A stretch of 43,054 nt of DNA, taken from positions 1 through 43,054 of the forward strand of contig CAZCND010000002.1 in the NCBI GenBank assembly GCA_964500195.1, read 5' to 3'. This document shows, in pieces, positions 10,990 through 43,054 of the stretch. Under the pieces are notes generated by a model. It was not told the DNA's origin. It saw nothing but the letters and a program-made list of their open reading frames with translations, and did no database searches. Within the stretch, counting starts at the first letter, position 1. The number at the start of each line of letters is the position of its first letter. A program made the translations under genes and the position numbers. The stretch comes from an uncultured Candidatus Saccharibacteria bacterium (GTDB taxonomy: Bacteria > Patescibacteriota > Minisyncoccia > Phycocordibacterales > UBA9973).

Positions 10990-13755
10990 ATGGAAGAATT
11001 AAGTTTTAAAGAAATCCCTAAATTTAAAAACCCCGAAGAAGAGTTGTCTTTTTTACGTGAGCGTTTAGCCGAAAAAGAGAAAGAGGTTCTATCTTCTAAC
11101 CAAGAATCATCCAGAGAAGAGTTGGCAAAAGAGGTTATTTCAGCTTATGAAAAACACCCCGCAGAAGAGGTTATGAAAAAAAGTAGCTTGTTGAGAGAAA
11201 AAGACAGAGAAGAGATAGTCTTAAGACTTCATCCAGAAACTCACGACAAAAAGATGGAAGAACTTTTGACTGTTGTTCTAGAAAAAGGTATTTCCAATGC
11301 ATTATCTTTGGTTGAAAAATTAAACAATCCACACATAGATGATGATTTTCATCGTTTTCTTGTCCAATATTTATCCAGCGTTGGAATAATTCCTGGATTA
11401 AAAGAACATAGCCCCCTAGAAAAAACACTAAAAATGAAACTTTTTGAAATAAGTTTACCGGTGGAAAATAATGATGATACTCACAAGAGAAGTTTGAAAG
11501 AACTATTGGGAGCAATGGAGCAGTTTTACTCAGGTATGTCTTCTGTATCAGAAGGGAAAAACAATAGTGAAGATAGTCGTTTTACGTTAGAAATTGCTTT
11601 GTCGGAGGATAGTAATAGTTTTGTTTTTTATACAGCTGTTCCAACAAGCAAGGCTGGTTTATTTGAAAAACTTTTGCTTGGGATTCACATGAATGCAAAG
11701 ATAATTGAAGCCCCAGATGATTATAATATTTTTTCTGAAAACGGATGTTCTGTTGGGTCCTATGCAGAACTAAAAAATAAAGCGGTTTTCCCTATAAAAC
11801 TTTATGATACACTCGATTATGATCCACTAAATATAATTTTAAATATATTTACAAAACTAAAAAAGAAGGGAGAGGGAGCCTCAGTTCAGCTAGTTGTTCA
11901 TCCAAAAGGGGATAGTTTAGTAAAGAAATATCAGAGTGTTTTAGAGCAGGTTAAAAAAGGAGTTTCTTTGAAAGACGCAACTGCTTCTTCTTTTAAACAA
12001 GTAAGTAAAGAAATTGGTTCTTTTTTAAAAGACTTTGTTTCTTCTTCTGAAAAAGATAAATTAAAAGAAGACAAAGATAGAGATAAAAAGGTAGATGAAA
12101 AAGCAGTTGAAAGTCTAAAAGAAAAAATAAGAAGCACTATCATGGAGGCAAATATTAGAATACTTGTCTCGGCCGAGGAAAAAGAAAGAGCAGAAAGTAT
12201 TCTGTCTGAGATAGAAGCTTCTTTTAATCAGTTTACAGAGGCAGATAAAAATGGTTTTAATTTTAAAAGGCCTAAGGGTGGAGATTTAGCTCGTCTTATG
12301 AGGAATTTTTCTTATCGTATTTTTGCTGGAAACGAAGCAGTGGACTTGAATTTAAAAGAATTGAGTACAATATTTCATTTTCCACAAGGTATTGTTTCTC
12401 CTCAACTAAAAGAAGCCCCTGCTGGAATTTCACCTGCTCCTCTTGATATAGAAGATAATGGATTGCTTTTGGGTATAAACAATTATCGGGGACAAGAGAC
12501 AGAAATTAGAATGTCTAAAGAAGATCGCTTGAGGCATCTCTATGTAATAGGGCAGACAGGAACAGGTAAAACGACTATTTTAAAGAATATGATAATTCAG
12601 GATATTAAAAATGGTGAGGGCTGTTGTTTTATAGACCCACACGGAACAGATGTCCAGTATATATTAGGACATATTCCTAAGGAAAGAATTGATGATGTTA
12701 TTTATTTTGATCCAGCATATACACCAAGACCAATGGGTTTGAACTTACTTGAATATGACCCTAAATATCCAGAACAAAAAACTTTTGTGATTAATGAGTT
12801 GTTAAATATCTTCAATAAGCTCTTTGACATGAAGACTGTTGGAGGTCCTATGTTTGAACAGTATTTTAAGAACAGTGCTTTTCTTGCCATGGACGATCCG
12901 AACGAACAGGCCACATTGCTTGATATTACAAGGGTTTTAACCAACGAAGAGTATCGCAATAGTCTTCTAGAAAAATGTCGAAACCCAATAGTTAAAGAAT
13001 TTTGGAAAAGTGCCTTGGCTGTTAAGGGAGAACAGTCTCTAACTGAGTTTGTGCCCTATATCTCTTCTAAATTTGATAACTTTATTTCCAATGATATTAT
13101 GCGACCAGTTGTTTTGCAGAAAGAATCCGTCTTTAATTTTAGAGAGATAATGGATAATAAAAAAATATTACTGGTTAATTTATCAAAAGGGAGATTGGGG
13201 GAAATAAACGCCAATTTAATAGGTCTTTTATTGGTTGGTAAAATTCAGATGGCTGCCATGTCTCGAGCTGATGTGTCTTATGAGCAAAAGATGAATGATT
13301 TTTATTTATACATAGATGAATTTCAAAACGTAACAACTGATTCTATAGCTTCAATTTTGTCTGAAGCTCGCAAATATCACCTATCTTTAACTGTTGCCCA
13401 TCAATATGTCGCACAGCTTGAAGAAGGGATAAAAAATGCAGTTTTTGGAAACGTCGGATCTATGATTGTCTATCGAGTGAGTCCAGAAGATGCTAATGTA
13501 CTTGAACCAAGATTAAAACCTATTTTTTCAGCTTCGGATATTCTGAAGTTGGAAAACTTTAATTCATATGTAAATATGTTAATAAAAGGCATGCCATCAA
13601 AACCATTTAATATGACTTCTCATTATAGTTTAGCCGATAGATTTGGCACAAAAAATAGTCCTGAAATGGCCGAAAAAATAAAGCAGTTGTCATATTTGAA
13701 ATATGGTAGACCACTTGAAGAAGTTGAAGAGGAAATTATGGAAAGATTTCATTAA
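10990..13755 (+). CDS. Large P-loop NTPase. C-terminal half is TraD/VirD4 (type IV coupling protein)/HerA-FtsK-like; the ~480-aa N-terminal region is uncharacterised
   Basis: Walker A GQTGTGKTT; Walker B FYLYIDEFQN; SLTVAHQY and VGSMIVYRV motifs typical of T4CP/TraG-D C-terminal ATPases. Confidence 0.7.
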   Translation: MEELSFKEIPKFKNPEEELSFLRERLAEKEKEVLSSNQESSREELAKEVISAYEKHPAEEVMKKSSLLREKDREEIVLRLHPETHDKKMEELLTVVLEKGISNALSLVEKLNNPHIDDDFHRFLVQYLSSVGIIPGLKEHSPLEKTLKMKLFEISLPVENNDDTHKRSLKELLGAMEQFYSGMSSVSEGKNNSEDSRFTLEIALSEDSNSFVFYTAVPTSKAGLFEKLLLGIHMNAKIIEAPDDYNIFSENGCSVGSYAELKNKAVFPIKLYDTLDYDPLNIILNIFTKLKKKGEGASVQLVVHPKGDSLVKKYQSVLEQVKKGVSLKDATASSFKQVSKEIGSFLKDFVSSSEKDKLKEDKDRDKKVDEKAVESLKEKIRSTIMEANIRILVSAEEKERAESILSEIEASFNQFTEADKNGFNFKRPKGGDLARLMRNFSYRIFAGNEAVDLNLKELSTIFHFPQGIVSPQLKEAPAGISPAPLDIEDNGLLLGINNYRGQETEIRMSKEDRLRHLYVIGQTGTGKTTILKNMIIQDIKNGEGCCFIDPHGTDVQYILGHIPKERIDDVIYFDPAYTPRPMGLNLLEYDPKYPEQKTFVINELLNIFNKLFDMKTVGGPMFEQYFKNSAFLAMDDPNEQATLLDITRVLTNEEYRNSLLEKCRNPIVKEFWKSALAVKGEQSLTEFVPYISSKFDNFISNDIMRPVVLQKESVFNFREIMDNKKILLVNLSKGRLGEINANLIGLLLVGKIQMAAMSRADVSYEQKMNDFYLYIDEFQNVTTDSIASILSEARKYHLSLTVAHQYVAQLEEGIKNAVFGNVGSMIVYRVSPEDANVLEPRLKPIFSASDILKLENFNSYVNMLIKGMPSKPFNMTSHYSLADRFGTKNSPEMAEKIKQLSYLKYGRPLEEVEEEIMERFH

Positions 13756-16635: not shown

Positions 16636-17145
16636 TTATGATTTATCTTTTTCTATGGTAATGGTTGGACCCTTGGGCCCCTTTTTAAAATCTTCAGCGA
16701 TTTTAAAATTTTCGGTAATTAAGTGAAGCACTCGATCTAAACGATCTTTTAAAAAAGAATCCTGCATAAACTTAGAGCGTCCTGAGACAAAAAGTTCTAT
16801 TTTTATACGATGTCCTTCTTTTAACCACTCAGAAGCTTTTTTGGCTTTAAGAGCTAAGTCGTTTTCTCCTGTTCCTATCTTTATTTGGATAGCCTTAGTC
16901 TCTGTTAATTTTGTTCCAGCCTTAGTCTTCTTTTGTTTTTTGTTTTGTTCGTACTTGTACTTACCGTAATCTGCTATTTTAACTATAGGAGGATTGGCAT
17001 TGGGAGATATCTCAATTAAATCAAGGCCCAAACTTTCAGCTTTTTCCAGTGCTTCTTTAACACTCAAAACACCAAGATTATCACCTTCGTTTGAGATTAC
17101 TCTAACCTCGGGCGCTTTTATTTGATTGTTTATTCGTTCTCTCAA
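16636..17145 (-). CDS. infC: Translation initiation factor IF-3 (TTG start as drawn)
   Basis: INNQIKAPEVRVI..., DLIEISPNANPPIVKIADYGKYKYE. Confidence 0.95.
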   Translation of the reverse strand: MRERINNQIKAPEVRVISNEGDNLGVLSVKEALEKAESLGLDLIEISPNANPPIVKIADYGKYKYEQNKKQKKTKAGTKLTETKAIQIKIGTGENDLALKAKKASEWLKEGHRIKIELFVSGRSKFMQDSFLKDRLDRVLHLITENFKIAEDFKKGPKGPTITIEKDKS

Positions 17146-17247
17146 TGTGTATTATCCGATAGAAATAAATAGATTACCTACCAAAGAAATATATCACATC
17201 CTTTCTTTTTTAGCAATAGTCAAAATAACTATATTTTTAAGCTCGAA

Positions 17248-19062
17248 ATGAAGAGTTTTAGTGTATCCACTTATTATATTATTTGTGTTAATATCTCTAA
17301 GGTGAGTAAAATAAAAACGAAATGGAATTTTAAACTTTTATATGGAAGTGATGACAGTACAGAGATAGAGAAAGATTTTAAAAAGGGAGAAAGAGCTGTT
17401 ATTTCTTTTAGAGATAAATATAAAAATAATAAAAAATATTTAAACGACGCAGATGAGCTTTTTTTGGCTTGCAAGGATTATGAGAAATTGATAGAGAGCA
17501 CAGAACTCACGAAGCCGTATTGTTATTTTATTTTAAGAAGGGATGTTAATCAAAATGATAAAAAACTAAATGCCAAAGTAAATGAATATCAAGAAAAATT
17601 AGACAAAACAAGCAATGAATTGTTGTTTTTTACTCTTAATGTTGGAAAAATAGATAAGGAAAAGCAAAAAGAATTCTTAAAAAACAAAAAACTTAGCAAA
17701 TATCATTATTTTCTTAATAAAATATTTGAAAATGCTAAATACTGTCTTACAGAAGAAGAAGAAAAAGTGATAAGTTTATTTAGTACACCTGCGAATGGTA
17801 TGTGGATTGAAGGGGTAAATAAGGTTCTGTCAAAACAGGAAGTTAATTTTCAAAATAGAACAATGCCGATAAGTGAAGCTATGGGGCTCTTGTCAAATTT
17901 AGAAACAAAAAAAAGAAGAAAACTAAATCATTTAATAAATCAAAAATTTATAGAAGTGTCTGATTTTAGTGAAGCTGAAATTAATGCCATATATACTACT
18001 AAAAAGATATCTGACGATTTAAGAGGATTTAAAACGCCGTATCAATCGACGATAAAGAGTTATGAGAACGAAGAAAAGGTTATAGAGAATCTAGTTAAAA
18101 CGGTTACGGATAATTTTAAAGTTGCGCATAGATTTTATAAGATTAAAGCAAAAATTTTAAAAGAGAAAAGATTAGAATATGCTGATCGTTCTGCTTCTGT
18201 TGGTGTTATTCATAAAGACTTTTCTTTTGAAGAAACAATTAAAATCGTTAGAAATGGATATGAAAGATTCGGCAGTGAATATGAAAAAATATTTGAAGAC
18301 TATCTCTTAAACGGGCAAATAGATGTTTATCCTAAAAAAAGTAAAAAAGGAGGGGCGTTTTGTTTTGGTGTTTATGGATTGCCGACGTTCATTCTTTTGA
18401 ACCAAGTTGATAATTATCAATCTGTCCTAACTCTTGGTCATGAAATGGGGCACGCCATTCATACCAAGTTTTCTCACACTCAACCTTCAATTTATTCTGA
18501 CTACACCATGTCTGTTGCAGAAACAGCCAGTACTTTATTTGAAAATTTTGTTTTTGATGAAATATATGAAAGTCTTTCCGAGAAAGAAAAAATTATAGCA
18601 TTGCATAATAATATAAATGATAATATCTCTACAATATTTAGACAGATTGCTTGTTTTAATTTTGAGGAAGAATTGCACGAGACAATTAGAAAAAACGGAT
18701 ATTGTGCCAAAGAAGATATTGCTAAAATAATGAACAAACACATGAAAAGCTATCTTGGTCCAATGTTTGATTTAAAAGAAGAAGACGGATATTTCTTTGT
18801 TGATTGGTTGCATATTAGGAGGTTTTTTTATGTTTATTCTTATGCTTATGGATGTTTGATTAGTAATTTTATGTACCAAGAATATAAGAAGGATAAAAAA
18901 TTCAAAGACAAAATAGAACAATTTTTAAAAGCAGGAGGAAGTAAGAGCCCTGAAGATATTTTTTCTGATATAGGGATAAATATTTGTGATTCAAAATTTT
19001 TTGAAAATGGGCTTAAGGCAATTGAGAATGATATTATAAAATTAGAAAAATTGGTGAAATAA
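17248..19062 (+). CDS. pepF: Oligoendopeptidase F-like M3B metallopeptidase (true start may be the in-frame GTG at 17302)
   Basis: LGHEMGHAIH zinc motif; ~600-aa M3 architecture. Confidence 0.85.
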   Translation: MKSFSVSTYYIICVNISKVSKIKTKWNFKLLYGSDDSTEIEKDFKKGERAVISFRDKYKNNKKYLNDADELFLACKDYEKLIESTELTKPYCYFILRRDVNQNDKKLNAKVNEYQEKLDKTSNELLFFTLNVGKIDKEKQKEFLKNKKLSKYHYFLNKIFENAKYCLTEEEEKVISLFSTPANGMWIEGVNKVLSKQEVNFQNRTMPISEAMGLLSNLETKKRRKLNHLINQKFIEVSDFSEAEINAIYTTKKISDDLRGFKTPYQSTIKSYENEEKVIENLVKTVTDNFKVAHRFYKIKAKILKEKRLEYADRSASVGVIHKDFSFEETIKIVRNGYERFGSEYEKIFEDYLLNGQIDVYPKKSKKGGAFCFGVYGLPTFILLNQVDNYQSVLTLGHEMGHAIHTKFSHTQPSIYSDYTMSVAETASTLFENFVFDEIYESLSEKEKIIALHNNINDNISTIFRQIACFNFEEELHETIRKNGYCAKEDIAKIMNKHMKSYLGPMFDLKEEDGYFFVDWLHIRRFFYVYSYAYGCLISNFMYQEYKKDKKFKDKIEQFLKAGGSKSPEDIFSDIGINICDSKFFENGLKAIENDIIKLEKLVK

Positions 19063-19194
19063 AAAACTATAGTCGTCCTTACACACAAAACCAGTGGATT
19101 AGGTAATAATCATTATTTGATGAGGTCATTTTGGTATTCATAATTGAATAATCGTTTAGGTAGATGGCTCAAAACTATTTTTGTGATTTTACTA

Positions 19195-19375
19195 CAAAAA
19201 AGAGGTAAGACCTTTGTCTTACCCCCTGTTCTTTATGAGCTTCCCCCAGCTCCGCCCGACCATTACGTAATATCCAACGGTCGCAATCTTACCCGATATT
19301 TGTTTTATTTGTGTCCGTCGAGAACTAATTAGTTGTTATGTGTTGTTCATCGCATTCTATATGGGCTTATTGATT
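19195..19375 (-). ncRNA. Candidate ~180-nt small transcript
   Basis: On the minus strand, TTGACA, 17 nt, TGaTAGCAT (plus 19382-19410). Internal hairpins are CGACC...GGTCG and GAGCT-GGGGGA-AGCTC. It ends in GGTAAGAC-AAAG-GTCTTACC plus TCTTTTTT. The longest internal ORF is 14 codons. Confidence 0.45.
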
Positions 19376-19605
19376 TAATATAATGCTATCATATATGGAT
19401 TCATTTGTCAAGTATTCCTAGTAGATATTTTAGGTGTCACCAATGGTTACAAGATAATATCCTTATCTAGTAAGGATATTTATGGTTATTACTAGAAAAT
19501 CCTCATTTTGTTTGCTAACAAAATGAGGCTCCGTTGCTCGATTTCCACACGCGAGCAAAGCCCGTCCGAACGGGTCATCCGGGTGGGCAGTTTGCTTGCT
19601 CATAT

Positions 19606-19790
19606 CCACAATAGAAAAACCCAAACGAGTTGGGTTTTCTATTGTGGACCCATCAGGCGAATCGTTAGATGCTTTAAAATATTATCTTTCTCGCTTTTGG
19701 GTGTATTATCAAAGCAATAAAAACCTTCAAAATATGCTTGAAAATGTTGAATAGATTGATTATTTATATTACACAGATAGAGTATTAGAT
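19606..19790 (-). repeat. R1: copy 1 of the ~150-nt cassette-separating module (core 19644-19790), with an adjacent long hairpin/terminator
   Basis: Shares long identical runs with R2-R4, for example tattatcaaagcaataaaaaccttcaaaatatgcttgaaaatgtt. Minus-strand TTGAAG-16-TGaTAATAC; 16-bp hairpin at 19606-19648. Confidence 0.85.
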
Positions 19791-19825
19791 GAACCTATGT
19801 TAATAATATATTTATTTAATTGACC

Positions 19826-19854
19826 TTGACAGAAGTGTTTCAATATGCTATAAT
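19826..19854 (+). promoter_or_regulatory. Consensus promoter for the 86-aa membrane ORF
   Basis: TTGACA, 17 nt, (TGc)TATAAT. Confidence 0.7.
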
Positions 19855-19982
19855 AGCTAAGTATAGTTCTTTTCATAGTTTTGTATTTATTTGCTTACAT
19901 TTTGTTGAGTTCTCCTAGTTTCTTTAAGGAGATTAAGAGAACTTAATAAAACTTATTGTTAAACAATTTAAATTCAAAACAA

Positions 19983-20216
19983 ATGAGAACAAATTGGTTA
20001 GAAAAATTGGCTCTTGGAGTTGGTATCGGTGTTCTTACAATATTTATTATTGCTGTTGTCAGTATTATCGCAGCTATTCCAACATTCTTTTTGTGGAATT
20101 GGCTGATGCCGACAATTTTTGGCATCGTAAAGATAACATTTTGGCAGGCGTGGGGAGTAAATTTCCTTGCAGGTGTTCTGTTCAAAAGTTCATCAACCAA
20201 ACAAAGCGATAAGTAA
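19983..20216 (+). CDS. Small hypothetical membrane protein (2-3 TM); the ORF opens at a TTG at 19956, ATG at 19983
   Basis: Hydrophobic ORF bracketed by a consensus promoter and a terminator; no family recognised. Confidence 0.55.
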   Translation: MRTNWLEKLALGVGIGVLTIFIIAVVSIIAAIPTFFLWNWLMPTIFGIVKITFWQAWGVNFLAGVLFKSSSTKQSDK

Positions 20217-20231
20217 GATGTATCAAACAAA

Positions 20232-20268
20232 CTCGCAACGAGAAAACTCGCTTGCGGGTTTTCTTTTT
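20232..20268 (+). terminator. Terminator of the 86-aa ORF; an inverted copy of the terminator module used by the other cassettes
   Basis: CGCAACGAG-AAAA-CTCG(C)TTGCG, then GGTTTTCTTTTT; homologous to 21284-21320 in reverse complement. Confidence 0.7.
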
Positions 20269-20295
20269 ATTTATTTAAAATTAAATTAATTATAC

Positions 20296-20500
20296 TGGTT
20301 CAATATCTTCCACATCTATACCAAAAATACCTTTACAAAATAAGGTTTAAAAAGTTGTGGACTTGTCAGGCAATACGTTAAGCGCCTTAAAAGATTACCT
20401 TTCTCACTTTTGGGTTTATTATCAAAGCAATAAAAACCTTCAAAATATGCTTGGGGATGTTAGTTTATAGTGTTTGTAGGTATCACAGTTAGGGTATTGA
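20296..20500 (-). repeat. R2: copy 2 of the module (core 20356-20500; left extension 20296-20355 is shared with R4)
   Basis: Aligned by eye to R1, R3 and R4. Minus-strand TTGAAG-16-TGaTAATAA, then ~85 nt, then AACCTTAT.../...AAGGT hairpin plus T-run. Confidence 0.85.
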
Positions 20501-20501
20501 A

Positions 20502-20546
20502 TAAAGAAAAGGAAATCACCTAAAAGATGATTTCCTTTAGGTGATT
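20502..20546 (-). terminator. Terminator of the 152-aa ORF
   Basis: TCACCTAAA...TTTAGGTGA 9-bp stem with flanking A/T runs. Confidence 0.7.
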
Positions 20547-20552
20547 TTTTGT

Positions 20553-21011
20553 TTAACGTTTTCGTGGACTACTTAGAATGTTAGGAGCACTCGGTCCCGT
20601 GAAAACTTTTGTTTTACTTTTTGGATGTTTATAAAAAAGTTGTAATGTCCAAACAACATGACCACTTCCTCCGACTGTACCTAAAACCCTATAACCAGTC
20701 CATTTAACTGAAGTGTCAGCCTTAAGAATTTCAGTAATGAATTGGATTATCTCACGGTCTGTTGTTTTTTTATTCCCAATCCACCCTCCTAATTGCATCT
20801 GTCCACCTTTTGTGTATTTTTTAATACAATCATTTGCGTGTTCATACCACCATCCCAAACATCTATCACTATCAGCTGTGACAAGCTTATCTTTGTCTGA
20901 ATATGTATTTGGGAATTGAAACTGTCTCAAATACATACCGCTTGCTTTGCCAAAAGTACCAAATTCGCCAAGTTTATACGGCTCAGCGGGATATACAGTA
21001 AATTTTTCCAT
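20553..21011 (-). CDS. Hypothetical protein (152 aa), cassette ORFan
   Basis: Clean ORF with own TTGACA / TGaTAGTAT promoter and terminator; no family recognised. Confidence 0.6.
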   Translation of the reverse strand: MEKFTVYPAEPYKLGEFGTFGKASGMYLRQFQFPNTYSDKDKLVTADSDRCLGWWYEHANDCIKKYTKGGQMQLGGWIGNKKTTDREIIQFITEILKADTSVKWTGYRVLGTVGGSGHVVWTLQLFYKHPKSKTKVFTGPSAPNILSSPRKR

Positions 21012-21096
21012 AGTTAATATGTTTTTTAATTGAACTCAGATTTATTTGTATGTGATACTATCATAATAAAATATATTTGTCAAGTATATAAACATT

Positions 21097-21276
21097 AAAA
21101 ACCCTTATAAAATAAGGTTAAGATTAAAAGTGGACTCGTCAGGCAAATCGTTAAGTGCTTTACAACATTACCCTTCTCGCTTTTGGGTGTATTATCAAAG
21201 CAATAAAAACCTTCAAAATATGCTTGAAAATGTTGGGTAGTTTTATTATTTATACTACACAGATAGAGTATTAGAT
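21097..21276 (-). repeat. R3: copy 3 of the module (core 21130-21276); putative sRNA about 21098-21182
   Basis: Minus-strand TTGAAG-16-TGaTAATAC (plus 21189-21194 is the -10); AACCTTAT-TTTA-TAAGGGTT plus TTTTT at 21098-21120. Confidence 0.85.
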
Positions 21277-21283
21277 GTAGATA

Positions 21284-21320
21284 AAAAGAAAACCCGCAAG
21301 CGAGCTCTCTCGTTGCGGGG
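21284..21320 (-). terminator. Terminator of the 440-aa ORF (shared cassette terminator module)
   Basis: Minus strand CCCGCAACGAG-AGAG-CTCGCTTGCGGG, then TTTTCTTTTT. Confidence 0.75.
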
Positions 21321-21322
21321 AT

Positions 21323-22645
21323 TTAATGTTTTAAAACAGCAATGGGTAAAGAGTCAGCCTTTTGCCCACCTTTATTTCGTGTATGGTTGCAAACAAAAGT
21401 CTCACCACTTTTTAATTCATAGTTCAAAATTTGTTTAGCCAAATCTCTGGCTTTTTGGGATGCTTGATATCCCTCAGGCAATCTTCTTACATGACATATA
21501 ACATCATGCTCCCTCTTTAGGACATGAATCGGATTATCTTTAACAGATGTATCATACTCACTTTCCAATTCTCTTTTTATTTCATTCAGATTATCAAACA
21601 GGACCCTTATCCTTTGGAGATAAAGCTTTGGGTTGAACTTTGAAAATCTTGGGATAATTCCACTCAACCAATTATTTGTCGGAAAGCTTGGGATATTATA
21701 CTTTTTGTGCACTATTGTAGGTACAACCAAATCATATAATCTGAATATTGCATTTGCTCTAATCATCTCATATAATTCAATCCTGTTTAGTCTTTCAAAT
21801 GAACTTCTCAAATTCACAGAAGAAATTCCAGCTAAATTTGATAATTCTCCGTCAACATTAACAGTGAAAGCAGCTTTACAATCAATACCACCCAAAAATG
21901 TTGGTGCTTGATCGTTATCAATCAAATTGTTTGGTATCGGAGAAGTGCTAATAATCCTGGACTTATTTATTACTACCATCGCTACTTTATTCTTGTTGAG
22001 AATTTGAGTTTTTCTTTTCATCTGCCAGTTGAATTCACTACTATATAATTCAGTGTATGAATAATCGGCAGGTAGATAAATCCAGTAATCATTAGGGGCA
22101 GAGATTATCCCATCTTTAAAAGCAGATGATTTTACTCCATACTGACGAAGTTCAAGTAGCTCTGACATTACATCGTTAGTAGATTTTTCTTGAAGATTGA
22201 ATTTTTCATTGAATAATTCAACATTCTTTACTATGGTGTTGTTTTCGTAATAAGATAAAAGTTTGTTGATATTTCTGACATTAGTCAGAAGAACTGTTAA
22301 CTTCATACCAACAAAATTTATATTCGGTCCAAATTTTGCAATCTCAGCCGCAATTCTTTTTTCAGTTCTTTCATTTCCAGACAATAGTGTTGCAACATAT
22401 TCAGCAATAATGCCTACAAATAAATTAGTCCGATGAATTTCTTTATTCCAACCGATGTGTTTATTTCTAATATCATCGATCGCAAGTATAACATTTATAA
22501 AGTTTTTTATGATTAATTCATCGTCACTTTGTCCCAAAAAATAAGTTTTGAAAATTTTTTCAGATAGAATCTCACATTGAGCATTATCCCAACTTTTTGA
22601 TGTTAAAAGTTGTTTTACGAGGTTTAAATAAACAAAATTTTTCAT
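21323..22645 (-). CDS. Hypothetical protein (440 aa), cassette ORFan
   Basis: Long uninterrupted ORF with own consensus promoter and terminator. C-terminal HDVICHVRRLPEGYQASQKA...GETFVCNHTR segment; no family confidently recognised. Confidence 0.7.
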   Translation of the reverse strand: MKNFVYLNLVKQLLTSKSWDNAQCEILSEKIFKTYFLGQSDDELIIKNFINVILAIDDIRNKHIGWNKEIHRTNLFVGIIAEYVATLLSGNERTEKRIAAEIAKFGPNINFVGMKLTVLLTNVRNINKLLSYYENNTIVKNVELFNEKFNLQEKSTNDVMSELLELRQYGVKSSAFKDGIISAPNDYWIYLPADYSYTELYSSEFNWQMKRKTQILNKNKVAMVVINKSRIISTSPIPNNLIDNDQAPTFLGGIDCKAAFTVNVDGELSNLAGISSVNLRSSFERLNRIELYEMIRANAIFRLYDLVVPTIVHKKYNIPSFPTNNWLSGIIPRFSKFNPKLYLQRIRVLFDNLNEIKRELESEYDTSVKDNPIHVLKREHDVICHVRRLPEGYQASQKARDLAKQILNYELKSGETFVCNHTRNKGGQKADSLPIAVLKH

Positions 22646-22767
22646 TTGTATTTGTTTTTAAGTTAATATTTATTGAATTTCCCTCATCCCACTTAGGTAG
22701 GGGAACAAAGAAAATTCAATAAAATACTCTAAAAACCAAAATATCAAAGAACTATACTACTCTATAT

Positions 22768-22796
22768 AGTATAGCATATTTATGATAGATTGTCAA
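22768..22796 (-). promoter_or_regulatory. Consensus promoter for the 440-aa ORF
   Basis: Minus strand TTGACA, 17 nt, (TGc)TATACT. Confidence 0.7.
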
Positions 22797-22807
22797 ACCC
22801 TGCGTAA

Positions 22808-23014
22808 TGGTTCAATATACCCCATATCTATACCAAAAAACCCTTATGGAATAAGGATGTTTGAATTGTGGACTCGTCAGACCAATCGTTAAGCGCCTTA
22901 AAAGACTACCTTTCTCGCTTTTGGGTATATTATCAAAGCAATAAAAACCTTCAAAATATGCTTGAAAATGTTTAATAGATTGATTATTTATACTACACAG
23001 GTAGAGTATTAGAT
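22808..23014 (-). repeat. R4: copy 4 of the module (core 22868-23014; extension 22808-22867 is shared with R2)
   Basis: Minus-strand TTGAAG-16-TGaTAATAT, then ~85 nt, then CCTTAT-TCC-ATAAGG plus TTTTTT. Confidence 0.85.
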
Positions 23015-23026
23015 ATTATATATAAA

Positions 23027-23066
23027 CAAAAAGAAAACCCCGCAAGAGCTTTCTTTTTACGGGGTG
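23027..23066 (-). terminator. Terminator of the 107-aa ORF (diverged copy of the cassette terminator module)
   Basis: ACCCCG...CGGGGT stem with a minus-strand TTTTCTTTTT tail. Confidence 0.5.
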
Positions 23067-23069
23067 GTA

Positions 23070-23393
23070 TTAATCCAACAAAATATACATTTCTTTTAAA
23101 ATGTGAAAAGTAAAATTTAATTGTGTCATGCTCACAACGGAAATTGTATATTCAAATGTTGCTTTACCATTCAAAACACTCAAAGGGCATGGTGATAAAA
23201 TAGCAAACCATTCGTATTCGTCAGCAGGAAGTGGAACAACGAAAATTTCATTGTTACTAGTTTCAGTTCTTATTGTTTCAATTACATCATCTAATGATTT
23301 TGTTTTGATTTCACCATTAAGAATCTGTTCATGGATATCTAAATAATCATAGATGCCAGCTATTTTTTTGTTTGATATTTGTGAAAGTAACAT
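23070..23393 (-). CDS. Hypothetical protein (107 aa), cassette ORFan
   Basis: AAGGAGG 5 nt upstream of the ATG; own promoter region carrying a perfect palindrome. Confidence 0.6.
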   Translation of the reverse strand: MLLSQISNKKIAGIYDYLDIHEQILNGEIKTKSLDDVIETIRTETSNNEIFVVPLPADEYEWFAILSPCPLSVLNGKATFEYTISVVSMTQLNFTFHILKEMYILLD

Positions 23394-23418
23394 AAAAACC
23401 TCCTTTTTATAAGAACAA

Positions 23419-23439
23419 CATTATTCTTAATAAGAATAA
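23419..23439. promoter_or_regulatory. Perfect 10-1-10 palindrome (operator-like) over the -10 region of the 107-aa ORF promoter
   Basis: ATTATTCTTA-A-TAAGAATAAT. Confidence 0.5.
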
Positions 23440-23472
23440 TACAATTATTATTAAAAAAGTCAAGCATAATTA

Positions 23473-23481
23473 TGCTATAAT
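23473..23481 (+). promoter_or_regulatory. Extended -10 promoter (TGcTATAAT) placing a start near 23488, the first G of element A
   Basis: The same TGCTATAAT motif precedes ftsH, ackA, ndk and the 86-aa ORF in this window. Confidence 0.55.
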
Positions 23482-23484
23482 GGA

Positions 23485-23670
23485 TGTGGAGATGGCGGGA
23501 ATCGGTCAGGAATAATTTTCTCGCCGTCGCTCGAAAATTTTCACGACCCTGGCTCGGCTATTTCGCCTGCTAGCGAAATTAAGCCTCCGCCTTTCGATTC
23601 CCGCACGGAAGACAAGCAGTTGTCTTCCTCATCTCCACATTATAAAAACCCCCCAAAAATGGGTTTTTTA
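23485..23670 (+). ncRNA. Element A: ~155-nt structured RNA/palindromic element whose ends copy the tmRNA acceptor and T-arm 3' end, followed by a terminator
   Basis: 5' TGTGGAGATGGCGGGAATCG pairs with CGATTCCCGC (23595-23604) and CATCTCCACA (23630-23639). Internal hairpins are GGTC...GACC, ATTTCGC-CTGCTA-GCGAAAT and GGAAGACA-AGCAGT-TGTCTTCC. AAAAACCC...GGGTTTTT terminator. Confidence 0.5.
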
Positions 23671-23675
23671 TAATG

Positions 23676-24115: not shown

Positions 24116-24559
24116 CTATCTTTTATATTCTCTTTCCATTTCTCTGTCCAAATCTCTTTTTTTGATTGTTTCTCTTTTATCAAAAGTCTTTTTCCCTTTG
24201 GCTATAGCGATTGAAACTTTAATATAAGGACCTTTACTATACAACGAAAGTGGCACAAGTGTCAATCCCTTAATGTCGTCTTTGTCTGCTAGTTTTTTAA
24301 TGTCTTTTTTGGATAAAAGTAATCGCCTTGTTCTTTCAGGGTCATGCGCTGGGTCAGTGTTGTTTGGCTGGTAGGGGGGTATGTTTAAGCCTATTATATA
24401 TGCTTCTCCTCCACGGATGACACAAAAAGTAGAGTTCAAGTTTCCTTGTCCTTTTCTAATAGATTTTACTTCATGGCCGAGAAGTTCTATACCCGCTTCA
24501 ACGGTTTCTTCTATCGTATAATTAAAATGGGCTTTTTTGTTTTCTAAATAAGTTACCAT
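24116..24559 (-). CDS. smpB: SsrA-binding protein SmpB
   Basis: NKKAHFNYTIEETVEAGIELLGHEVKSIRKG; basic C-terminal tail. Confidence 0.96.
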   Translation of the reverse strand: MVTYLENKKAHFNYTIEETVEAGIELLGHEVKSIRKGQGNLNSTFCVIRGGEAYIIGLNIPPYQPNNTDPAHDPERTRRLLLSKKDIKKLADKDDIKGLTLVPLSLYSKGPYIKVSIAIAKGKKTFDKRETIKKRDLDREMEREYKR

Positions 24560-26969: not shown

Positions 26970-27043
26970 CCGCTTGTAGCTCAGTTGGTTAGAGCATCGA
27001 GCTTATACCTCGAGGGTCCCACGTTCGAGTCGTGGCAAGCGGA
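26970..27043 (+). tRNA. tRNA-Ile with genomically encoded UAU anticodon; CCA not encoded
   Basis: Hand-folded cloverleaf. Acceptor CCGCTTG/CAAGCGG; D arm GCTC-AGTTGGTTA-GAGC; anticodon arm TCGAG-CTTATAC-CTCGA; T arm CCACG-TTCGAGT-CGTGG; discriminator A. Confidence 0.85.
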
Positions 27044-27052
27044 CACGGTTTT

Positions 27053-40306: not shown

Positions 40307-40563
40307 AGCTTGATACCTCCTATCTTTAGTATTGTTAAAGAACAACACCCACAGGAACATCCTATAGGTACCCCATCATACATATTATTAATACAAATGT
40401 CAATCTTTTTTGGGGCACATTAGCCAATCAGAGGTTACCAACACCTACCACTAAGGGCGCTCTGGACTCCTGAGAGGTGTTGCGTCATTCCTTGTGTTGT
40501 ATGACAAACGCAACAACACAAGCGCCATTAGGGACTACGGCCAAAGTAGTAGTCCCCGTAAAG

Positions 40564-41829
40564 ATGAAATACTGCCTCTATGCGAGAAAGTCGACAGAGT
40601 CAGAAGAAAGACAAGTCCTTTCAATAGATAGCCAAATCAGCGAGATGCTCCAATTAGCCGATCGTGAGGGGCTTGAGGTGGTCACCATGAAGCGTGAAAG
40701 CCATAGTGCTAAAGAGACTGGTCAGAGACCAGTATTTAACGAAATGGTTGAAGAACTCAAACAAGAGAAGTTCAATGCAATCCTCACTTGGGCACCTGAT
40801 CGTATTTCAAGAAATGCAGGCGACCTTGGAAAAATAGTAGATCTAATGGATTCAGGTAAACTACATATAATAAGAACCTTCGGACAAACTTTTGGAAATA
40901 ATCCAAATGAGAAATTCCTTCTCATGATTCTAGGCTCACAAGCAAAACTAGAAAATGATAATCGAGGTATCAACGTGAAGCGAGGATTACGAACAAGAGT
41001 AGAGATGGGATTATGGCCTGGCATGGCACCACTTGGATATTTAAACCAAAAATTAATGGACAGGAAGTGTCAAATAGTAATTGATCCAGATAGAGCACCA
41101 ATCATTAAGAAAATGTTTGAGAAAGTAGTGTATGAACATTGGAGTGGTAGAAAGGTATATAACTGGTTACGATTTGATTTAAATTTCTATACTCGAGGAA
41201 ATAAACCCCTGACACTCTCAGGGGTTTATCGTATTTTTAATATGCCAATCTATTATGGACCATTTGAATATCCTAGAAATTCTGATAACTGGTATCAAGG
41301 AAGTCATACACCAATAATTACTCAAGAGTTATTTGAAAAAGCTCAAGCACAATTAAAGAGAGATAGGATTGTAAGAGAAAATAGAGAGTTCGCATTCACT
41401 AAACTGTTCACCTGCGGCATGTGCGGGTCAGGCATCACCGCCCAAGAAAAGTACAAAATACTCAAGGACGGTACGAACGCCAAGTACATCTACTATTCAT
41501 GCTCCAAGGCAAAGGACCGTGATTGCAAGAACAAATACATCCGAGAAGAGGAATTGATCGACGAACTCTTCAAGATTATCGACCAGGTGAATATCAACGA
41601 ACTTGGGATGCGCATGAAACTTGAGGAAGAGATTAAACGATTCAACCGACTACAGCGATTGGCAACCAAGGGTACACCAAAATACAATATCAACGAGGAT
41701 GAAATTAATACCCGGGAATACGCCAAGTATGTACTCAAGGAAGGCACTGCGCTCGAAAAACGAGAGCTTCTAGGACATCTAAGATCACGATTACTACTGG
41801 AAGACAAGAAGATTAGCCTGGTTCAGTAA
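40564..41829 (+). CDS. Large serine recombinase (resolvase domain, recombinase domain, zinc ribbon, coiled coil); ATG at 40564 preferred over 40477
   Basis: N-terminus MKYCLYARKSTESEERQ (catalytic Ser context), AILTWAPDRISRN, CGMCGS...YYSCSKAKDRDCKNKY zinc ribbon. Confidence 0.88.
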   Translation: MKYCLYARKSTESEERQVLSIDSQISEMLQLADREGLEVVTMKRESHSAKETGQRPVFNEMVEELKQEKFNAILTWAPDRISRNAGDLGKIVDLMDSGKLHIIRTFGQTFGNNPNEKFLLMILGSQAKLENDNRGINVKRGLRTRVEMGLWPGMAPLGYLNQKLMDRKCQIVIDPDRAPIIKKMFEKVVYEHWSGRKVYNWLRFDLNFYTRGNKPLTLSGVYRIFNMPIYYGPFEYPRNSDNWYQGSHTPIITQELFEKAQAQLKRDRIVRENREFAFTKLFTCGMCGSGITAQEKYKILKDGTNAKYIYYSCSKAKDRDCKNKYIREEELIDELFKIIDQVNINELGMRMKLEEEIKRFNRLQRLATKGTPKYNINEDEINTREYAKYVLKEGTALEKRELLGHLRSRLLLEDKKISLVQ

Positions 41830-42928: not shown

Positions 42929-43054
42929 TGCGGAGACGCAGGGATTCGGTCACTCTCGTGGATATTTTGCCTTGCTTCGCTTGCAAAATATCTCACTCCC
43001 TCGACCCCCACTCGGGCTGGCCGCTTCGCGGACTTCGTCAGCCCTCGGTTCGAA
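42929..43054 (+). repeat. Element B: third member of the A/B/C family, truncated by the window end at ...GGTTCGAA
   Basis: 5' TGCGGAGACGCAGGGATTCG-GTCAC; GATATTTTGC...GCAAAATATC hairpin; CTCGACCCCC; GGCTG...CAGCC hairpin; then CCTCGGTTCGAA. Collinear with A and C. Confidence 0.5.

Follow-up and report, generated by a model that had tools for sequence, protein, structure and literature searches.

Four direct repeats beside a Saccharibacteria tmRNA gene are probably displaced 3' ends of a split serine recombinase gene

A stretch of 43,054 nucleotides (nt) from an uncultured Candidatus Saccharibacteria bacterium (contig CAZCND010000002.1 of assembly GCA_964500195.1), hereafter the window, holds an array in the interval between pepF and ssrA, the gene for transfer-messenger RNA (tmRNA), in which four same-orientation modules of about 150 nt lie between four single-gene units. 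This layout had been recognized in a preliminary description made from the sequence alone, and a repeat search bore it out. We propose that the four repeats are probably the displaced 3' ends of a serine recombinase gene that was split on insertion at the tmRNA gene, and that the array is the residue of insertions at ssrA. It is most likely a stack of stripped-down mini-islands of the kind seen in Dehalococcoides, and not a new small-RNA system.

The elements using this site would carry a large serine recombinase (LSR) with the phage-type attachment site, attP, inside its own gene, some 36 codons ahead of the stop. If such an element inserted at the very 3' end of the tmRNA gene, with the switch point within GT-GG-A, its recombinase gene would be split, so that the first ~520 codons would remain proximal to the tmRNA, with the frame continuing into the tmRNA gene, and the last ~36 codons and the 3' flank would be moved to the far end of the element. 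Each module would consist of a P'-type half attachment (att) site (GG followed by ACTCGTCAGGCAAATCG), a conserved tail (..LKDYLSRFWVYYQSNKNLQNMLENV and a stop codon) and a conserved 3' stretch of about 40 nt. Since the window holds four such orphan tails without a recombinase body, the array would be the residue of at least four separate insertions accreted at ssrA, with one self-expressed cargo gene kept in each.

The module and the split recombinase gene

The repeat search of the window placed the four direct copies at 19636-19790, 20349-20503, 21122-21276 and 22860-23014, and the conserved GTGGAC of each copy coincides with the module starts already noted at 19644, 20356/7, 21130 and 22868. 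A 37-mer, TATTATCAAAGCAATAAAAACCTTCAAAATATGCTTG, is exact in all four and found nowhere else in the window (none expected by chance), and pairwise identity among the copies is 76.5-90%. Counted from the conserved GTGGAC, and with the open reading frame (ORF) of the tail, the modules are:

19644-19790, plus strand: module c1, with the junction GT-GG-AC, a putative P'-type half-site, the tail ORF at 19644-19754 (VDPSGESLDALKYYLSRFWVYYQSNKNLQNMLENVE, stop) and the conserved 3' stretch of ~40 nt
20357-20503, plus strand: module c2, tail ORF at 20357-20470 (VDLSGNTLSALKDYLSHFWVYYQSNKNLQNMLGDVSL, stop)
21130-21276, plus strand: module c3, tail ORF at 21130-21240 (VDSSGKSLSALQHYPSRFWVYYQSNKNLQNMLENVG, stop)
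22868-23014, plus strand: module c4, tail ORF at 22868-22975 (VDSSDQSLSALKDYLSRFWVYYQSNKNLQNMLENV, stop)

Every copy shows, from GTGGAC, an open plus-strand frame of 35-37 codons that reads VDxSGxSLSALKDYLSRFWVYYQSNKNLQNMLENV(E) up to a common stop, and in no other frame are all copies open as far as a shared stop. When seven DNA copies were compared (the four window modules and those of the loci L002, L022 and L024), the ratio of nonsynonymous to synonymous variation (pN/pS) was 0.28 in this frame, a value reached in only 4 of 2000 column shuffles; four other frames gave 0.84-1.10, and one stop-containing antisense frame that shares third positions gave 0.40. Variable columns were distributed 10/8/17 over the three codon positions. 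A profile of the four window peptides, searched against 1.84 billion representative proteins, retrieved 22 proteins (E<=0.001) in which the match was always C-terminal and always began at V[DE]; these clusters share at most 50% identity with each other. By these measures purifying selection on the putative displaced 3' fragment is clear, and with 22 clusters the fragment is widespread.

A word-based search with the c1 ORF returned two annotated mini-ORFs, P0126 and P0127, whose contigs led to L022, and a scan of JGI metagenomes turned up one true copy (L002) plus a single chance match. The only hit of a GTDB genome scan was a chance match in Methanobrevibacter, and no module copy was found in IMG/VR with three different queries or in phage and plasmid collections. 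All copies with a readable neighborhood lie within the pepF-ssrA interval in one orientation, with the exception of the L002 module, which has a different gene context near a contig end. Modules c1, c3 and c4 are 88-90% identical to each other and equally near to L002 (86-89%), whereas c2, the most divergent copy, is nearer to the L022 and L024 modules (77-81%) than to c1, c3 and c4. By these relationships the copies are not recent local duplicates, and they are non-monophyletic within the genome.

The L022 locus links the tail to a recombinase. Its order is pepF, a 133-aa (amino acid) gene, a 107-aa cassette, a module, small genes over about 8 kb, the gene for a recombinase of 534 aa, tmRNA and SmpB, and its single module lies at the far end of an element of 8.4 kb. 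The recombinase is an LSR (Resolvase, Zn_ribbon_recom and, weakly, Recombinase domains), and the nearest phage serine integrases share about 25% identity with it over residues 24-440. The recombinase gene (16860-18464) has no stop inside the element and overlaps the tmRNA 3' end (18420) by 45 nt, its ORF running ..TSKPRL-VEVAGIEPACKKKS and a stop across GTG GAA into the tmRNA, and the module at the other end of the element starts GTG GAC TTG TCA, in the same frame as the GTG GAA of the recombinase. The protein P0132 joins the two parts: residues 2-64 match residues 460-522 of the L022 recombinase (46% identity, E 6e-17), and the sequence runs unbroken into VEDPQERLDDLKDYLRRFWHYYISNRNLQRLLENADVA, which matches the window modules with E-values of 1e-10 to 1e-6. 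The continuity of P0132 and the frame match in L022 together provide evidence that the tail is a genuine C-terminus of the recombinase family; attP would lie inside the recombinase gene, and integration would separate body from tail.

The motif ..(T/A)GT-GG-A.. is common to the four window modules, the L002, L022 and L024 modules and every tmRNA 3' end examined. Right of the GG, modules read ACTCGTCAGGCAAATCG and tmRNA reads AGATGGCGGGAATCG, which are similar but not identical, and these two right flanks would be half-sites bound by one enzyme. The attP reconstructed for L022 from its recombinase end and module, CCCCGACTAGT-GG-ACTTGTCAGG, shows a local dyad. The modules share only GTGGA with ssrA; a displaced tmRNA end was considered as their source and rejected, as the local alignment of the tmRNA 3' end with the modules extends to TGTGGA only, and the resemblance of the next ~16 nt to tmRNA is better read as half-site similarity. 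Left of the GG in the window modules there is an A-run and, 8-14 nt away, a hairpin resembling the present tmRNA terminator. Most simply, these hairpins are former tmRNA terminators (B-type arms) and not small-RNA terminators. The suggestion that the module is a recombination site therefore stands insofar as the module carries a half-site at the ..GT-GG-A.. junction, but it misses that the module would also be a displaced gene end.

A second LSR gene lies elsewhere in the window (40477-41829, plus strand; 450 aa with Resolvase, Recombinase and Zn_ribbon_recom domains). Its neighbors are a pheS-like gene and a hydrolase gene, and the stretch around it, at 37-42 kb, has a GC content of 43-47% versus ~33% elsewhere. 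This LSR gene may mark another integrated element. As the cognate enzyme of the modules it is an unlikely candidate, being 24% identical to the L022 enzyme and having an unrelated C-terminus.

The pepF-ssrA interval and its cargo units

Contigs of close strains were obtained through exact-protein look-ups. On the SmpB side, L004 and L005 match the window with 99.3-99.8% identity down to 23674, the tmRNA 3' terminus, beyond which their DNA differs from that of the window; on the pepF side, L017 and L018 match with 98.6-98.9% identity up to 19066 (pepF stop+4). In the relative L020 (pepF 71% identical) only a 450-nt spacer separates the pepF stop from the tmRNA, and in L019 the gap holds a 171-aa gene and a GIY-YIG gene. 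Because homology stops at these points in close strains and L020 has only the short spacer, the 4.6 kb between pepF and ssrA are, by sequence comparison, inserted, fast-turnover DNA flanked by conserved anchors, and the interval is an integration hot spot. The comparison across strains proposed in the preliminary description thus found the interval variable among relatives between pepF and the tmRNA 3' terminus, in agreement with the suggested tandem accretion of related integrase-less mini-units beside ssrA. The features of the interval other than the modules are the following:

19067-19643, no strand: old pepF-ssrA spacer, outside the array, with pieces homologous to the L020 spacer; close strains diverge from 19066
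19826-20273, plus strand: cargo unit 1, inverted relative to the others, with promoter TTGACA-17-TATAAT (19826-19854), 86-aa gene (19956-20216) and terminator T1 (20234-20273)
20293-20356, no strand: left arm of junction 2, a conserved segment (20293-20333) and hairpin T2, ending ..TTGT before GG; repeat families D2 and D5
20508-21083, minus strand: cargo unit 2, with its own terminator (20508-20550), 152-aa ORFan (20553-21011) and promoter TTGACA-17-TAGTAT (21055-21083)
21086-21129, no strand: left arm of junction 3, hairpin T2, ending ..AAGT before GG; repeat family D2
21278-22796, minus strand: cargo unit 3, with T1 (21278-21317), 440-aa ORFan (21323-22645) and promoter TTGACA-17-TATACT (22768-22796)
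22805-22867, no strand: left arm of junction 4, a conserved segment and hairpin T2, ending ..TTGT before GG; repeat families D2 and D5
23015-23483, minus strand: cargo unit 4, with a T1-like terminator, 107-aa ORFan (23070-23393) and promoter TTGACT-16-TATTAT (23436-23463)
23484-23504, minus strand: perfect direct repeat of the tmRNA 3' end, 21 nt from acceptor to T-loop (repeat search)
23505-23674, minus strand: 168-nt segment that contains the bidirectional tmRNA terminator and, inverted and interrupted by a hairpin, a copy of the tmRNA 3' end; homologous DNA is present in L020 and L024
23675-24057, minus strand: tmRNA gene (ssrA), the integration target (ARAGORN; Rfam 131 bits)
24116-24559: SmpB gene, beyond ssrA (Pfam)

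The extent first assigned to the array needed correction at both ends. Its left ~570 nt (19067-19643; the span had been set to begin at 19100) are old pepF-ssrA spacer, and on the right the array does not abut the tmRNA gene, the 21-nt repeat and the 168-nt structured segment lying between them. The B-type left arm of the first junction, a degenerate inverted unit of the tmRNA 3' end with a hairpin (~19537-19640), lies within the old spacer; L024 has an equivalent junction immediately past pepF, where such a unit and hairpin meet a GTGGAC module, so that L024 and c1 have this arm in common.

The ORF sizes and strands given before (one plus-strand product of 86 aa and minus-strand products of 152, 440 and 107 aa) agree with the ORF list, and the near-consensus cassette promoters were recovered by a promoter scan at 19826 (plus strand, 12/12), 22796 (minus, 11/12), and 21083 and 23463 (both minus, 10/12). 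Terminator-like hairpins number 12, versus 2.2 expected. The homologous terminator described as inverted together with the plus-strand gene is so: T1 at 20234-20273 is 93% complementary to 21278-21317. T1 (AAAAGAAAACCCGCAAGCGAG..CTCGTTGCGGG) stands 3' of unrelated cargo genes at 20234-20273, 21278-21317 and 23026-23060, and also 3' of pnuC-like genes (nicotinamide mononucleotide transporter) at L002 568-600 and L024 1551-1600, with 86-88% identity. That T1 could be the own terminator of the recombinase gene was ruled out, as it travels with the inverted cargo gene and also follows pnuC-like genes.

The cargo proteins had been said to belong to no recognizable family, and indeed none of the four has a match in Pfam or PADLOC; sequence searches of the PDB gave nothing, and PHROGs was uninformative except for the 86-aa protein, whose sole match is the phage membrane-protein family phrog_2169 (E 1e-10). 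Cargo unit 3 has a 120-nt leader with a hairpin. Its 440-aa protein has only four homologues (44-48% identity), including single chromosomal genes in Falkowbacteria, and no module was found in the fetched loci of these homologues, the chromosomal Falkowbacteria ones included; an AlphaFold2 model of the protein was unusable (predicted local distance difference test score, pLDDT, 51.6). The 107-aa cassette recurs: window 23019-23481 and L022 9528-9991 are 84.5% identical, versus 68-72% for the flanking core genes. The borders of this block are exactly the module end on one side and GT-GG on the other, so that cassette borders fall at module borders as had been predicted, and the block is followed by the module GTGGAC in L022 and by the tmRNA-end repeat GTGGAG in the window. 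Judged by its sequence, cargo unit 4 is a discrete, horizontally shared cassette. The modules, 81-88% identical between species, are likewise above the flanking core genes, and because both modules and 107-aa cassette are more conserved than these genes, the comparison points to their horizontal spread.

The 21-nt repeat at 23484-23504 is attached to no module; broken in the T-loop, it represents another class of att-type duplication. The right end of the 23505-23674 segment, ..TAATGT-GG-AG, is the present junction resembling a bacterial attachment site (attB). The DNA directly 3' of the tmRNA terminator, with the 21-nt repeat (23482-23645, minus strand), has a very stable multi-stem fold (-82.2 kcal/mol, z -9.5) in which the acceptor stem is mimicked by a closing stem of 11 bp, and T-arm sequence forms a further stem of 9-10 bp. 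The inverted copy of the tmRNA 3' end is kept in at least two relatives (L020 11890-12214; L024 4163-4222), and the window has a degenerate second copy at ~19537-19612. Possible identities of the segment are a structured RNA, a palindromic att region and the scar of an element that targets the T-loop.

Other observations concern the same interval. In the old spacer, positions 19200-19411 (minus strand) hold a strong promoter, TTGACA-17-TAGCAT with a TG extension, about 160 nt without an ORF and a strong terminator with a 12-bp stem, in part homologous to the L020 spacer; this unit may be a small RNA or a decayed cassette, and for a small RNA it is a stronger candidate than the modules are. The L019 GIY-YIG gene (78 aa; 12590-13100) lies between direct repeats of ~50 nt that consist of the tmRNA 3' end and terminator and break in the T-loop after ..GGGAATC, a different kind of insertion at the same tmRNA gene. 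In L005 (2865-3265) and L004 (5166-5261), the DNA 3' of the tmRNA consists of a promoter (TTGACT-17-TATAAT), a unit of ~60 nt that ends in a hairpin, and a gene in convergent orientation whose likeness to the NYN/LabA type was judged by eye only. The final codons ahead of GTGGAG in these two strains (..SKNSLL-VE) have a faint likeness to the end of the recombinase body (..SKPRL-VE).

Formation of the array and competing explanations

Several results weigh against displaced recombinase ends as the origin of the array. The conservation of the module exceeds coding constraint, with a 47-nt block nucleotide-identical in five copies and the ~40 nt past the stop codon also conserved. P0132, on a contig of 1.1 kb, is the only database protein with recombinase and tail in one ORF, and no intact attP or circular form was found in the IMG/VR, phage and plasmid searches. 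No remnant of a recombinase body was detected in the window array by blastn or tblastn, the arms left of the modules included. Three units share a conserved right end (the segment and hairpin T2), which random decay does not predict, and the spread of T1 among unrelated genes has no explanation. Moreover, LSRs normally do not recombine attP with the attR of an earlier insertion, which leaves serial insertion unexplained. Short similarities seen by eye in the arms (ATACCAA, TAAGGTT) were considered as recombinase remnants and proved not significant.

From the features of the sequence we infer the exact crossover and the order of events, the loss of the recombinase-bearing parts or else the mobilization of units in trans, and a need of the tail for full recombinase function. 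Two routes could have led to the array: full elements may have inserted serially and then lost all but one cargo gene, or integrase-less mini-elements may have been mobilized in trans, their right arm (segment and T2) regenerating a usable site. Trans-mobilized mini-elements are favored by the conserved right arms and by the lack of any recombinase debris, whereas the wholesale replacement of the interval between close strains favors turnover by homologous exchange.

Taken as an explanation of its own, the second route is unlikely, if a serious alternative. It keeps the module origin proposed here and differs only in how the array was formed: mini-elements without an integrase, carrying a half att site and tail at one end and a hairpin arm at the other, would have been stacked by a recombinase acting in trans. 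It would account for exactly one gene per unit with its own promoter and terminator, for the conserved right ends (D2 and D5 repeats and hairpin, ..TTGT before GG) ahead of c2, c3 and c4, for the complete lack of recombinase-body debris, for modules that are non-monophyletic within the genome, and for a 107-aa cassette that recurs in L022 with borders at the module end and GT-GG and is more conserved than core genes; the 15 integrase-less ssrA islands of Dehalococcoides, interpreted as cis-mobilizable, offer a precedent (PMC3146451). However, this genome yielded neither a circular cassette nor an empty site nor a cognate recombinase, cassette 4 is without the hairpin arm, the 107-aa cassette of L022 has lost nearly all of its module, and close strains swap the whole interval and not single cassettes. 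That ssrA is the seat of a working serine-recombinase cassette platform, which would capture cassettes much as an integron does but be built on a split recombinase gene, we regard as distinctly unlikely. If it did, the mini-elements would carry a half att site and recombinase tail at one end, and their terminator arm would give the tmRNA its termination back and re-create an attB-like site, allowing unlimited stacking of cassettes; a neighboring module could return the conserved tail to an incoming or resident truncated recombinase, whose activity would depend on the topology of the element (circle, tandem or solo).

The remaining explanations deny that the module is a recombinase end. An independent micro-protein gene (~36 aa, GTG start), for example a regulator or directionality factor separate from the recombinase, would agree with the fact that homology always begins at V[DE], encoded by GTGGA in seven DNA copies and so a possible GTG start, and gene callers have annotated a gene of 33-54 aa here in several metagenomes. 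We hold it to be highly improbable: there is no consistent ribosome-binding site, with upstream sequences that differ among copies and none in L022, P0132 fuses the peptide to the C-terminal domain of a recombinase in one frame, and the L022 recombinase reaches the junction without a stop in that same frame. More improbable still is the small-RNA unit first proposed, in which each module would be a minus-strand promoter, an RNA of ~85 nt, such as an antitoxin or regulator, and a terminator. The string TTGAAG-16-TAATAx with a downstream hairpin and T-run is present in all four window copies, the identical 47-nt block includes it, and an antisense promoter could overlap the tail. Yet the promoter scan lists all cassette promoters and not the TTGAAG site. 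The last base of its -10 element is C, A, C and T in the four copies, the only variable -10 base and the wobble position of a Val codon (GTN), while the final T of sigma-70 -10 elements is nearly invariant. The supposed RNA is the most variable stretch, its changes tracking codon phase; the plus strand is coding, with the peptide conserved over 22 protein clusters of at most 50% mutual identity; and the hairpin is absent after the L002 and L022 modules. A consensus fold of the five close copies, of low statistical power, gave a positive covariation term (+1.4 kcal/mol) and compensatory changes at only 4 of 37 pairs, of which three fall within the terminator hairpin; this is no useful covariation. 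No Rfam family matches the module, at gathering score or at E<=5, and a hammerhead-like CUGAnGA string considered in this context is not conserved among copies.

Finally, it is scarcely credible that the module is an ordinary dispersed repeat, such as a miniature inverted-repeat transposable element (MITE), or part of an integron-type attC array. Conserved repeats of ~150 nt between single genes, and a GTTRRRY-like string (GTTAAGY) near the module start, would fit this explanation. Against it, all copies with readable context, L002 excepted, lie in the pepF-ssrA interval in one orientation, the four window copies among them, and the scans added only one true copy; there are no terminal inverted repeats, target duplications or inverted repeat joining the module ends; the cassettes have their own promoters, and one is inverted; and the module sequence is protein-coding.

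Known systems and other features

It had been stated that no described system has this layout, but the ssrA islands of Dehalococcoides, with the serine recombinase DsiB, follow the same logic and are, by analogy, the closest known system. DsiB is a large serine recombinase of ~540 aa encoded at the island edge beside ssrA, and the 3' end of dsiB always overlaps attL or ssrA, the stop codon lying only outside the island, so that the ORF runs on into ssrA or the neighboring island; its authors proposed a 'requisite 3' gene fragment', with a full gene only in the circular form or next to an island providing that fragment (PMC3146451). The islands lie in tandem downstream of ssrA in a strain-variable region, 15 of them without integration genes, with insertion in the T-loop and a 20-bp perfect ssrA repeat at every border, and a six-gene integration module encodes DsiA, ParB, Mom and others (PMC3146451).

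As in the DsiB islands, strain-variable DNA is here bounded by the ssrA 3' end and tandem units include some without integration genes (in the window, four modules and four cargo units), and the L022 recombinase ORF likewise overlaps att/ssrA at its 3' end without an internal stop. A recombinase at the ssrA-proximal edge is a feature of L022 only, the window array being without one by tblastn. The switch point is in the T-loop in the DsiB islands and at the extreme 3' terminus here, with only GTGGA in common, and the next ~16 nt here merely resemble ssrA (~12-13 of 21, read by eye). The C-terminal overlap is divergent in DsiB, whereas the tail is strongly conserved here (pN/pS 0.28; 22 clusters), and no domains of the six-gene integration module were detected among the 10 L022 genes scanned. 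Dehalococcoides ssrA islands measure 10-30 kb, unlike the units of 0.5-1.7 kb, with one gene each, in the present array. The phylum also differs, the relatives here being labeled Moranbacteria and Patescibacteria. The likeness is one of architecture.

Other systems are partial analogues. In archaeal split tyrosine integrases of the SSV1 type, attP lies in the integrase ORF and the gene is split to both ends of the element, leaving orphan-fragment scars. The split itself, with body and tail at opposite ends in one frame, is seen in L022 (contiguous gene in P0132 only), but the SSV1 type differs in having a tyrosine recombinase, a tRNA target, an overlap within the integrase coding region and archaeal hosts. 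Staphylococcal cassette chromosomes (SCC, SCCmec) use the LSRs CcrAB for insertion at the 3' end of a single-copy essential gene and form tandem composite arrays, with repeated att sequences between the units, that include recombinase-less pseudo-SCC elements; unlike here, their target is rlmH, their repeats are att cores of 15-18 bp and the recombinase gene is unsplit. Cis-mobilizable elements (CIMEs), integrase-less and att-bounded, accrete with integrative and conjugative elements (ICEs) at tRNA and other 3' ends and are mobilized by the recombinase of a neighbor, but through tyrosine integrases and true att direct repeats. Integron arrays and clusters of attC sites lacking integrases (CALINs) share with the present array single-gene cassettes between conserved repeats of 100-150 nt, whereas their attC sites are folded imperfect palindromes used by the tyrosine recombinase IntI and their cassettes are promoterless and co-oriented, neither of which is seen here.

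According to the Islander database paper, no tRNA or tmRNA gene was known as a target of serine recombinases (PMC4383910), and such cases are still few. After Dehalococcoides, the elements proposed here would represent a second independent lineage of large serine recombinases that target the tmRNA gene. The 150-nt repeat in a genome of Patescibacteria type would be a footprint of mobile-element traffic and not a new RNA, and its conserved, selected tail would support the idea of 2011 that the recombinase is complete only on the excised circle or beside another element. A tail-dependent recombinase would amount to a built-in topological switch for integration, relevant to the use of serine integrases in genome engineering, and the tail motif LKDYLSRFWxYYQSxxNLQxxLEN could serve as a marker for mapping element ends in metagenomes.

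The gap between infC and pepF (17146-17247) is a second variable spot, empty in the window; relatives have one to three extra genes in it, L019 and L020 DUF378 together with one or two small unnamed genes, L022 truB together with two unnamed genes. In L002, pepF is not adjacent, and the genes that follow infC encode a 459-aa protein, a small membrane protein and a 273-aa protein. At the right end of the window, positions 42946-43053 are 82.6% identical over the last ~110 nt to a piece of the pepF-ssrA spacer of L020 (11936-12044); the piece, cut by the window end, ends in a T-arm-like GGTTCGA in both genomes. Neither Rfam nor tRNA searches made a call over 42946-43053, and the piece may be a tRNA-like or other structured RNA doubling as an integration target. 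A tRNA-Ile gene with the anticodon TAT (UAU) lies at 26970-27044 (plus strand), in the same place as in L020; tRNA-Ile(UAU) is uncommon in bacteria, where AUA is mostly read by a lysidine-modified CAU tRNA.

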